IMG/VR virus record: IMGVR_UViG_2802429219_000011
Coordinates: 1-18,574 of that record
Origin: a virus
Taxonomy: Duplodnaviria > Heunggongvirae > Uroviricota > Caudoviricetes
Length of the DNA: 18,574 nucleotides
Direction: 5' to 3' (one strand)
Below, piece by piece: positions 14,679 through 17,153 of the stretch. Each line of letters starts with the position of its first letter. Within the stretch, counting starts at the first letter, position 1. The position numbers were made by a program, and so were the translations under genes. The notes under the pieces are model-generated. The model had not been told where the DNA came from. It saw only the letters and a list, made by a program, of their open reading frames with translations, and did not search any database.

Positions 14679-17153
14679 ATGAGTAAAGTCTTTATTTGCG
14701 CCGCCATTCCGGACGAACAGGCAATAAAGGAAGAAGGTGCAGTTGCTGTAGCCACTGCCATTGAAGCCGGTGACGAACGCCGCGCCCGTGCCAAATTTAC
14801 CTGGCAATTCCTGGAGCAATATCCGGCTGCTCAGGACTGCGCTTATAAATTTCTTGTCTGCGAGGATAAACCCGGCATGCCCCGCCCTGCTATCGACTCC
14901 TGGGATACCGAATATATGCAGGAAAACCGCTGGGATGAGGAATCCGCTTCCTTTATTCCGGTCGAACCAGAATCCGATCCGATGAACGTCAATTTTGACA
15001 AGCTGTCCCTTGAAGTACAGAACGCGGTCCTGGTTAAGTTCGGTACATGTGAAAACATCACCGTTGATATGGTGATTAGCGCACAGGAGTTACTGCAGGA
15101 AGACGTGGCGACATTCGACGGGCATATCGTTGAAGCACTGATGAAAACACCAGAAATTAACGCTATGTATCCGGAACGCAAACTGTTCGCTATCGGATGG
15201 GGTAAACACAAATGTAAGCCGGGTGCCAAATGGCCCGAAATTCAGGCTGAATTACGTAACTGGAAAAAACGGCAGGACGCGGAGCGCAAAGAGACTGGAA
15301 AATACACGTCTGTTGTTGATCTCGCCCGCACCAGAGTCAACCGACAGCACACTGAAAACTCAGCAGAAAAAATCCCCCCTGTCACTGCAGTTATTCGTCG
15401 CGAATACAAGCAGACATGGAAAACATTGGATGATGAACTGGCCTACGCTCTGTGGCCTGGTGACATTGATGCCGGAAACATTGACGGCAGCATCCATCGC
15501 TGGGCAAAAAATGAAGTTATCGAGAGCGATCGCGAAGACTGGAAGCGTATTTCCGCATCAATGCGCAAACAGCCTGATGCCATTCGCTATGACCGTCAGA
15601 CTATTTTTGGCCTTGTCCGTGAGCGTCCGATCGACATTCACAAGGATCCCGTGGCACTGAACAAATACATCACTGAATACCTGGCGACAAAGGGCGTGTT
15701 TGAGGATGAAGAAACAGACCAGAACACTGCTGATATTCTCCAGCCGTCAGCAGCACAAACTGATGCAGTGGAAACTGAAGTATCTGATACCAAAAAAAAT
15801 GAAAGCGCGCTGGAAACTGAACCATCTGTAGAGCGTGAGGGGCCGTTCTACTTCCTCTTCACCGATAAGGATGGCGAAAAATATGGTCGTGCAAACAAAC
15901 TTTCTGGTCTGAATAAGGCGCTGGCTGCCGGGGCTACTGAAATCACGAAAGAAGAATATTTTGCCCGCAAAAACGGCACATACTCAGGTTCACAACAAAA
16001 TACTGGTGCATCTGACACGACCGCACAACCAGAGCCGGTAAAAGTTACCGCTGACGAAGTAAACAAAATTATGCAGGCAGTCAGCCAGCCTGACGCCAAT
16101 CAGTTGCTTGCTGCCTCTCGCGGAGAATTTGTTGCAGGGATTAGCGACCCGAATGATCCGAAATGGGTGAAGGGGATTGAAACCCGCGATTCTGTGTACC
16201 AGAACCAGCAAGAAACGGAACAGAACGACCAGAAAGCGGAACAAAACAGCCAAAATGCGTTACAAAACGAGCCAGAAACGAAACAATCCGAACCAGTAGC
16301 GCAACAAGAACCAGAAAAAACCTGCACCGCCTGCGGTCAGAGCGGTGGCGGCAACTGCCCTGATTGTGGCGCGGTGATGGGCAACGCAACATATCAGGAA
16401 ACATTCGATGAAGAGAATCAGGTTGAAGTTCAGGAAAATGATCCGGAGGAAATGGAAGGCGCTGAACATCCACACAAGGGGGACACTAGCGGCGCTCAGG
16501 ACCACGCCAGCGATAGTGAAACTGGTGAGGCGGCAGATCCCTTAATTAATGTGAATGGTCATCATAAAAGCACATCCACCAGCAGAGTGTGGTACCACCT
16601 GATGATCGACCTTGAAACGATGGGTAAAAAAAGTAATGCCCCCATCGTGGTTATTGGTGCTGTGTTCTTCGATCCGCAGACCGGGGAAATCGGGCCAACA
16701 TTTTATATCGTTATCAGCCTGGTTGACGCTATGGACACGGGTGCTGTACCTGATGGTTCCACCATCGAATGGTGGCTTGCTCAGTCCAGCGAAGCCAGAT
16801 CTGCAATTTTAGTTGATCAGGTAAAACTGGTTGACGCTCTTATTCAATTTCGGGAATTCATCAATGAGTACTCGAATGAAAAATTCGTTCAGGTATGGGG
16901 CAATGGTGCAACTTTCGACAACACTATTTTACGAACCTCGTACGAACGCCTGAACATCCCCTGCCCGTGGCGTTACTACAACGATCGCGATGTACGTACA
17001 ATCGTTGAACTGGGAAAAACTATCGACTTCGATGCCAGAACAGTTATTCCATTTGAAGGCGTGCGCCACCATGCGCTGGATGATGCCCGTCACCAGGCGA
17101 AATACGTTTCAGCAATCTGGCAAAAACTGATCCCGAATCAGGCTGATTTTTAA
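14679..17153 (+). CDS. Large early protein (824 aa): N-terminal YdfE-like region, Q/E-rich low-complexity linker, C4 zinc-ribbon motif, C-terminal DEDDh-type 3'-5' exonuclease domain
   Basis: C-terminal motifs MIDLETMG (Exo I, D-x-E), [12 protein letters not shown] (Exo II) and [10 protein letters not shown] (Exo III, H ... D). [16 protein letters not shown] gives C-x2-C-x8-C-x2-C. GAGG 11 nt upstream of the ATG. Confidence 0.8.
   Translation: [824 protein letters not shown]

Follow-up and report, generated by a model that had tools for sequence, protein, structure and literature searches.

The stretch analysed here (the window) comprises the 18,574 nucleotides of the virus record IMGVR_UViG_2802429219_000011, and the gene in question is a long plus-strand open reading frame (ORF) situated immediately before the excisionase and integrase genes of the lambdoid prophage that makes up these 18.6 kb. 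The ORF lies exactly where the initial annotation had placed it, with a GAGG sequence about 10 nt upstream of its ATG, and its 824-residue product is matched over the full length by PHROG 2082 ('exonuclease'). An identical protein is on record from unclassified Escherichia (P0360, also named 'exonuclease') and near-identical relatives are found in E. marmotae and E. whittamii; this is consistent with the best DNA identity to E. coli, which is 93%. The parts of the gene are as follows.

14679..17153, plus strand: whole ORF, putative DEDDh exonuclease on a YdfE/RecE-type scaffold (ATG start, 824 residues and stop)
14679..15344, plus strand: N-terminal folded region, YdfE_N/YdfE_C part, aa 1-222 (alpha/beta lobe aa 1-100, helical lobe aa 105-222)
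15396..15713, plus strand: helical domain in common with RecE (about RecE 278-360), aa 240-345 (BLASTP against K-12 RecE; mosaic module B)
15840..16178, plus strand: small module shared with RecE, aa 388-500, ending in a near-identical motif (BLASTP; mosaic module C)
16203..16307, plus strand: degenerate 21-bp repeat, five copies with 71% matches, encoding the glutamine/glutamate-rich (Q/E) linker aa 509-543 (Tandem Repeats Finder)
16323..16367, plus strand: four-Cys zinc-ribbon motif C-x2-C-x7-C-x2-C, aa 549-563 (C549, C552, C560, C563)
16368..16583, plus strand: acidic disordered linker, aa 564-635 (BLASTP, structure model)
16584..17150, plus strand: predicted DEDDh 3'-5' exonuclease domain, Rv2179c-like/DexA-like, aa 636-824 (Pfam, alignment, structure model)
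16608..16616, plus strand: Exo I motif D644-L-E646 (alignment A1)
16917..16919, plus strand: Exo II Asp747, within WGNGATFD (alignment A1)
17067..17084, plus strand: Exo III motif H797-x4-D802, HHALDD (alignment A1)

The C-terminal nuclease domain and the RecE-like scaffold

The Pfam family PF16473 (Rv2179c-like) covers aa 640-814, corresponding to profile positions 2-177 of 177, with an expectation value (E) of 1.1e-68 and 230.8 bits against a cutoff of 27. When the domain was aligned with T6 DexA and 15 homologues (MAFFT, alignment A1), D644/E646, D747 and H797/D802 were found to be invariant or nearly so. In the AlphaFold2 (AF2) model of the whole protein, built on a 66-sequence alignment, the domain adopts an RNase H-like alpha/beta fold with a predicted local distance difference test score (pLDDT) above 90, while a single-sequence run of the full length gave only pLDDT 35. 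The family match, the conserved residues and the model thus agree with the earlier description of a DnaQ-like DEDDh domain with all three Exo motifs. An internal start at M642, which would yield a stand-alone domain, was considered and rejected because no Shine-Dalgarno-like sequence precedes it.

Among solved structures, DexA is the best match to the domain by sequence as well as by structure. In a phmmer search of the PDB it was retrieved with E 1.4e-9, no other match fell below 1e-8 and Rv2179c was not retrieved at E up to 1; further strong fold matches are RNases, namely RNase T, REXO2/Orn and ERI1. Since DexA alone was recovered by sequence, a phage DNA exonuclease is a nearer relative of the domain than the mycobacterial RNase after which PF16473 is named, and the domain is probably catalytically competent, with metal-dependent 3'-5' exonuclease activity on DNA. 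An Rv2179c-like exoribonuclease, which would trim or degrade the 3' ends of host or phage transcripts or small RNAs in lytic development, is quite unlikely. It would fit the naming of the Pfam family after the M. tuberculosis 3'-5' exoribonuclease Rv2179c, the RNase fold matches and the many homologues that RefSeq names '3'-5' exoribonuclease', but it is opposed by DexA being the only sequence match with E below 1e-8 and by the fact that all the exchangeable partner modules in the protein family described below have DNA-recombination functions.

The rest of the protein forms a composite scaffold. Over its first 256 residues it shares 85% identity with what survives of K-12 YdfE, and aa 1 to about 210 are modelled with pLDDT above 90. 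The assignments PF27430 (YdfE_N) and PF27432 (YdfE_C) are precomputed annotations on the identical protein P0360, and a profile of the N-terminal 345 residues (A4) found no solved relative among PDB sequences, the only matches being spurious ones to designed proteins. The helical domain at aa 240-345 is likewise modelled above 90, whereas the module at aa 388-500 reaches medium confidence (pLDDT 60-80, with medium stretches at aa 388-435 and 470-495). Disordered linkers were predicted at aa 223-235, 347-386, 438-471, 497-545 and 567-634. The repetitive Q/E-rich string quoted in the initial annotation was located at aa 508-537 and corresponds to the degenerate 21-bp repeat; this linker, also predicted to be disordered, is 14 residues longer than its K-12 RecE counterpart. 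The four-Cys motif is present too, with a middle spacer of seven residues rather than the eight first proposed. All four Cys are invariant in 121 sequences, the segment has a pLDDT of about 76, and the motif occurs in K-12 RecE as well (C-NAC-GQTGGDN-CPDC). The putative ribbon may bind metal.

The homology with RecE extends far beyond the ribbon. Residues 262-623 align with K-12 RecE 278-591 (BLASTP, E 5e-60). Identity over the whole alignment is 38%, and beyond about aa 474 there are long stretches in which the two proteins are nearly identical. The shared stretch holds the helical domain, an LLAASRGEF... motif, the Q/E linker, the four-Cys ribbon and the acidic tail. The similarity stops within the acidic linker at ADP(L/V)I, at about aa 623 (RecE 591), approximately where the RecE nuclease domain begins, and BLASTP against K-12 RecE gave no significant similarity past RecE 591, leaving RecE 600-866 unmatched. 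In agreement with this, the NCBIfam equivalog for exodeoxyribonuclease VIII (NF007259) reaches 266 bits, far short of its cutoff of 1269, and the match is confined to model positions 270-602. At the other end, the RecE front family Exonuc_VIII (PF06630) gave no Pfam match in the window protein at E up to 1, its N-terminus being of the YdfE type. As a result of the homology of aa 262-623, the protein can be described as a RecE-scaffold/DEDDh chimera. The idea that a DEDDh protein stands here instead of RecE therefore holds for the catalytic domain, whose residues align with those of known DEDDh enzymes and which is not of the RecE type, but not for the middle of the protein, where the RecE homology, including that of the zinc ribbon and the Q/E linker, had been overlooked.

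The ratio of nonsynonymous to synonymous substitution rates (dN/dS) between the window protein and three close homologues is about 0.22 overall. In pairwise comparisons it ranges from 0.10 to 0.19 in the folded parts (0.10-0.12 for aa 1-222 and 0.10-0.17 for aa 240-345) and from 0.5 to 2.4 in most of the disordered linkers; the acidic linker gives 0.46-0.86, and the Q/E repeat segment, with 0.07-0.27, is an exception among the linkers. Judged by these ratios, the folded parts are under purifying selection. The synonymous rate itself differs greatly from one part of the gene to another, a pattern that points to mosaic ancestry.

A mosaic family and its annealase context

A search of 1.84 billion representative proteins returned 11,667 relatives, the long ones of which were dissected against seven modules and checked with Pfam. 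The architectures recovered are given below (proteins; front and middle; C-terminal module).

Window protein and P0211: YdfE-type front with RecE-type middle; DEDDh
P0214: RecE-type front (Exonuc_VIII) and middle, almost identical to K-12 RecE 1-590; DEDDh (Rv2179c-like)
P0213: both fronts; DEDDh
P0227: YdfE-type front; PD-(D/E)XK nuclease
P0225, P0236, P0237, P0258 and P0315: YdfE-type front; third module of about 310 residues, no Pfam family

These sequence comparisons show the family to be a mosaic, in which YdfE-type or RecE-type fronts are combined with PD-(D/E)XK or DEDDh nuclease modules. Module exchange is also recent: over aa 1-500 there is 100% identity between the window protein and certain E. 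marmotae proteins, yet their DEDDh domains share only 70%.

The proteins with the third module belong to PHROG 2489/7838 ('exonuclease'), and in the locus that was read for them (L012, positions 5001-7337) the gene is flanked by a Gam-like gene on its upstream side and by a Sipho_Gp157 gene on its downstream side. The module has no Pfam match, and its profile found none in the PDB. With hhalign and a provisional human Rad52 query, the module, with its motifs FGP-G-WG and KKSLTDA-KKALS-LGF, gave a weak but collinear match to the Rad52 core (E 0.017, probability 2.7%). These YdfE_N-scaffold proteins may be scaffold-annealase fusions.

A further association was seen between the type of nuclease and the genes that follow it. 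In all seven loci read, the DEDDh forms are directly followed by xis-int without an annealase gene: the window, E. coli BCE049 (L001), the phages HannyBb and Evi (L008, L009), a Rac-like prophage with KilR, YdaE and SieB (L011), phage vB_EcoS-640R1 (L013) and a further chromosome (L017). No RecT, Red-beta, Erf or Sak family match was obtained with Pfam and PHROG for the early-left ORFs of the window, and the complete HannyBb genome contains no annotated annealase. The PD-(D/E)XK forms, on the other hand, are followed by RecT in both contexts read, K-12 Rac and the P0227 locus (L016), where a gene overlapping that of P0227 matches Pfam RecT with E 2e-36; moreover, recT lay under the match in every E. 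coli RecE-nuclease-domain match among the matches listed. Whether an annealase gene is present thus goes with the type of nuclease and not with the scaffold. The same slot immediately before xis-int is occupied in a different prophage type, from Salmonella, by a stand-alone 189-residue DEDDh homologue (P0080).

These observations bear on the possibility that the protein is a recombination exonuclease equivalent to RecE but of opposite polarity, feeding a host function or an unrecognised annealing or strand-exchange function. Such a role is considered unlikely. The protein does occupy the operon slot of recE or exo and has about 360 residues in common with RecE; relatives on the same YdfE_N scaffold carry the RecE-type nuclease together with RecT, and others carry the weakly Rad52-like module beside Gam-like and Sipho_Gp157 genes. 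Additionally, full-length RecE, but not its nuclease domain alone, was reported to boost linear-linear recombination (PMC11611040). However, no annealase accompanies the DEDDh form in the seven loci or in the complete phage genome, and the similarity to Rad52 is weak and relies on a provisional query sequence. A further difficulty is polarity: as is known from SynExo systems and the RecF pathway, 3'-5' resection removes the 3' tails that the RecT, Red-beta and RecA pathways need.

The family is widespread. A DNA match covering 80% or more of the DEDDh domain was obtained in 4161 (77%) of 5426 complete E. coli genomes, with a median of two copies and up to eight per genome, as compared with 1730 (32%) and a median of one copy for the RecE nuclease domain. 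Matches to the whole gene, at the same coverage, occur in 3457 of the 5426. The DEDDh domain also occurs in 1402 phage records from many hosts, and the gene is carried by the isolated viable temperate phages HannyBb, Evi, mEp460 and Tritos. An intact copy had been considered useful for defining the function; the copy in the window is indeed intact, but intact copies are not rare, as these counts and the identical P0360 attest.

The prophage around the gene

On the minus strand, reading leftward, the prophage carries a YdaS/Cro-like gene, YdaT, an O-like (DnaT-domain) replication gene, a P-like gene and DUF977, followed by hok/sok, HicAB, DUF968, RusA, Q, two tRNAs, a holin and a fragment of istB of the insertion sequence (IS) IS21. 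On the plus strand, rightward, a DicA/CI-like repressor, PaaA2-ParE, a hairpin, a promoter-like site, ydfA (DUF1391), a 212-residue ORF, dicB, a ydfD-like DUF1482 gene, the 824-residue gene, xis and int follow one another. The gene therefore sits between the dicB/ydfD-like genes and xis-int, that is, in the position where lambdoid phages carry exo or recE, as had been proposed. The plus-strand features relevant to its expression are the following.

12242-12261: terminator-like hairpin preceding the candidate early-left promoter
12277..12320, plus strand: candidate early-left promoter TTGACA-18-TAGATT in front of ydfA (consensus scan only)
14210..14392, plus strand: dicB, upstream in the same operon, 92% identical to K-12 DicB
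14341..14598, plus strand: ydfD-like DUF1482 gene (Pfam PF07358, E 1e-22)
17218..17466, plus strand: excisionase, immediately 3' of the 824-residue gene (Pfam Exc)
17444..18574, plus strand: lambda-type integrase (Pfam Arm-DNA-bind_1 and Phage_integrase)

The candidate promoter overlaps a palindrome with 16-bp arms (12277-12315), and the consensus scan gave no further promoter-like site on the plus strand between it and the exonuclease gene. Transcription of the gene together with dicB, ydfD, xis and int would start from this repressor-controlled early-left promoter, in which case the protein would be made on induction or infection.

Several other features of the prophage were recorded. A PaaA2-ParE toxin-antitoxin pair (11747-12225) lies directly downstream of the DicA/CI-like repressor. 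The 212-residue early-left ORF (12794-13432, plus strand) belongs to PHROG 2151, to which no function has been assigned, and has no Pfam or PADLOC match, and for an opposite-strand ORF of 108 residues (13975-14301, minus strand) none of PHROG, Pfam and PADLOC gave a match. Although dicB is present, Rfam did not recover DicF at the gathering threshold. Between the exonuclease stop and xis there is a GC-rich hairpin without a U-tract (17165-17197, GGTCGTCGCC...GGCGGCGACC, about -24 kcal/mol, z -2.2), which could be a processing or attenuation signal or a chance feature. On the minus strand, the nin-like region (5428-6698) contains a HicA/HicB pair (5428-6145) and a hok/sok locus, with the hok ORF at 6374-6586 and a sok RNA match at 6524-6698 (Rfam, 109.5 bits), and two tRNA genes (2046-2196) separate the Q antiterminator from the lysis region. 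Next to the holin gene, a C-terminal fragment of the IS21 IstB ATPase (13-390, plus strand) occupies the left edge of the window, and an IS element probably inserted into or truncated the late region of the prophage.

Proposed function and comparison with known systems

At the domain level the protein is well annotated, but as a protein it is uncharacterised, and what is added here is its nature as a RecE-scaffold chimera within a very common mosaic family. The reading considered the most plausible, with slightly better than even confidence, is that of a modular early protein of lambdoid prophages, in which a DexA-like 3'-5' DNA exonuclease is mounted on a RecE-like scaffold and which does not act as a RecET-type recombinase. 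In this arrangement, aa 636-824 would form a DEDDh (DnaQ-fold) 3'-to-5' exonuclease of the DexA/Rv2179c family, using the fold's usual two-metal-ion chemistry, in which D644, E646, D747 and D802 would bind the metals while H797 would serve as general base. About 70 disordered acidic residues would tether the nuclease to a non-catalytic scaffold composed of the YdfE_N/YdfE_C domains, the helical domain, the short conserved module, the Q/E linker and the zinc ribbon, the second half of which corresponds to the N-terminal region of RecE that has no assigned function. Most likely, the protein removes nucleotides from DNA 3' ends; with DexA clearly its closest relative, DNA rather than RNA is the favoured substrate. 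It would fill the slot held by RecE in Rac-type phages without providing two-component recombination of the RecET type, and its scaffold might be a delivery or targeting module able to carry alternative effector domains. Its context points to a role other than RecET-type recombination, and the candidates would be degradation of host or competitor DNA, end processing and exclusion of other phages.

Several points weigh against this interpretation. The expression timing is derived from gene order and the consensus promoter scan only, and the absence of an annealase is a matter of annotation and Pfam in seven loci, not of a census. Structure and profile searches for a fold or a partner of the scaffold found none, so its targeting role is pure inference. 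The preference for DNA over RNA is not readable from sequence, and PF16473 is named after an exoribonuclease. In the literature searched there were no activity, substrate or phenotype data for the window protein or its full-length homologues, nor anything on YdfE or on the DEDDh fusion. Finally, in a sister lineage comprising 21 of the 120 closest cluster representatives, the Exo I Glu is replaced by Lys (DLKTMG) in an ORF that is intact at 821 residues.

This sister lineage (P0361-P0385, P0395, P0423 and P0478), found mostly in E. marmotae and E. whittamii and in some E. coli, is 99-100% identical to the window protein across the first 500 residues. In the segments corresponding to window aa 640-652 and 740-747 it shows DLKTMG or VLKTMG, the Asp being sometimes changed to Val, and WGYEA in place of WGNGA, and it is probably a dead nuclease. 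It hints at decay or at a function independent of catalysis. That the window gene itself is a decaying prophage gene with no current function is nevertheless very improbable. Such decay would be in line with the loss of the Exo I glutamate in the sister lineage, with the K-12 copy being a pseudogene cut by IS2, with the many database entries that are fragments and with the IS21 fragment at the left end of the prophage; but the window copy is intact with all catalytic residues present, its folded domains show the low dN/dS described above, and the gene is maintained in viable temperate phages.

In a broader and more tentative proposal, which is judged possible but doubtful, the RecE N-terminal region would be a widespread, exchangeable phage 'delivery platform' existing in two forms (YdfE-type and Exonuc_VIII-type) and carrying at least three effectors: a PD-(D/E)XK 5'-3' exonuclease, a DexA-like 3'-5' exonuclease and the roughly 310-residue module, which may be a Rad52-like annealase. 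The DEDDh form, which is the commonest in E. coli, would work without an annealase and so serve a purpose other than that of RecET, for instance inter-phage or anti-defence DNA degradation targeted via the scaffold. RecET is a workhorse of recombineering, while the N-terminal 590 or so residues of RecE have no assigned function, and half of that region is now seen to be common to a second, more prevalent protein. As a nuclease that would have the opposite polarity and lacks RecT, this second protein offers a natural comparison for the function of the scaffold, for example through shared partners. It also represents one of the commonest uncharacterised enzymes of E. coli prophages, including those of strains bearing Shiga toxin phages.

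The closest solved relative of the domain itself is T4 DexA (8KEL/8KEN), which has the same fold and DEDDh catalytic residues but shares just 24-28% identity with the window domain. The window domain forms the C-terminus of an 824-residue protein, whereas DexA, like its E. coli homologue EcD, stands alone at about 180-230 residues. A recent study reported the T4 DexA structures and proposed EcD as a degrader of DNA containing 5-hydroxymethylcytosine (5hmC), termed 'HREX' (PMC12153337). It was reported that EcD degrades T4 DNA but not unmodified double-stranded DNA in vitro and that plasmid-borne EcD protects cells from T4; DexA homologues were found to be most abundant in Escherichia, and loss of the DexA tetramer contact S87/D90 was linked to 5hmC-only activity (PMC12153337). 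In that study the 'bacterial' DexA homologues are presented as genes of host defence, with no mention of prophages (PMC12153337). In the present analysis, the Escherichia relatives of the DexA-type domain proved to be abundant and for the most part to be early genes of prophages, placed shortly before xis-int and in many cases fused with a RecE/YdfE scaffold; the HREX idea thereby gains a genomic context.

A prophage nuclease for defence or superinfection exclusion of the HREX type, which would spare unmodified host DNA and degrade the 5hmC DNA of T-even phages as EcD does, would accord with these results, with DexA being the closest solved relative and with the presence of the domain in 4161 E. 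coli genomes. It is nonetheless held to be improbable. In alignment A1 the proposed 5hmC-recognition residues W152 and D169 of DexA correspond to Y767 and T781, although the alignment is uncertain in this loop-rich stretch, with W764, D783 and D785 close by. Among close homologues, Y, C, H or S occurs at position 767 and T, A or S at position 781, while the stand-alone homologues keep the Trp of W152. Of the tetramer residues, S87 corresponds to K716, and D90 is retained as D719, conserved in 120 of 121 sequences. EcD does not appear to be a close relative of the window domain, since its start MIDTET (known from the cloning primer in the PMC12153337 supplement) is shared by none of the 479 relatives fetched; EcD (HAK9828821.1) was also not among the cluster members listed. 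The EcD primer sequences were not found in the complete E. coli genomes and gave one chance match in an Acetatifactor metagenome-assembled genome, and the EcD gene may be synthetic. In addition, the window gene is situated deep within the repressed early-left operon, where no separate promoter for it was detected, an arrangement atypical of defence genes expressed in the lysogen, and the sole PADLOC match is a weak one to a generic DEDDh model (E 7e-4).

The other known systems compare with the window protein as follows. Rv2179c of M. tuberculosis (4HEC), the founder of PF16473, is a stand-alone bacterial exoribonuclease that the phmmer search did not retrieve. The stand-alone prophage DEDDh exonucleases of about 189 residues from Salmonella, Klebsiella and Citrobacter (for example P0080) are 60-65% identical to aa 636-824 and are likewise encoded immediately upstream of xis-int, but they have no scaffold and retain the Trp at the position of DexA W152. 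K-12 YdfE (b1577), a pseudogene of the Qin prophage, has the same neighbours, dicB and ydfD, but is truncated by IS2E after residue 256, so that everything from the RecE-like region onward is missing; its disruption by an IS had been correctly stated. Lastly, RecE of Rac, whose partner is RecT, occupies the same slot towards the far end of the early-left operon, a short way ahead of xis-int, has a similar overall size (866 residues against 824) and shares the homologous middle region. It has been described that its N-terminal domain is of unknown function and that its nuclease domain (564-866) suffices genetically (PMC11611040). RecE differs from the window protein in its Exonuc_VIII (PF06630) front, which takes the place of the YdfE-type first 256 residues, in the PD-(D/E)XK 5'-3' exonuclease at RecE 600-866, where the window protein has a predicted DEDDh 3'-5' enzyme, and in the adjacent, translationally coupled recT, where the next gene in the window is xis at 17218.

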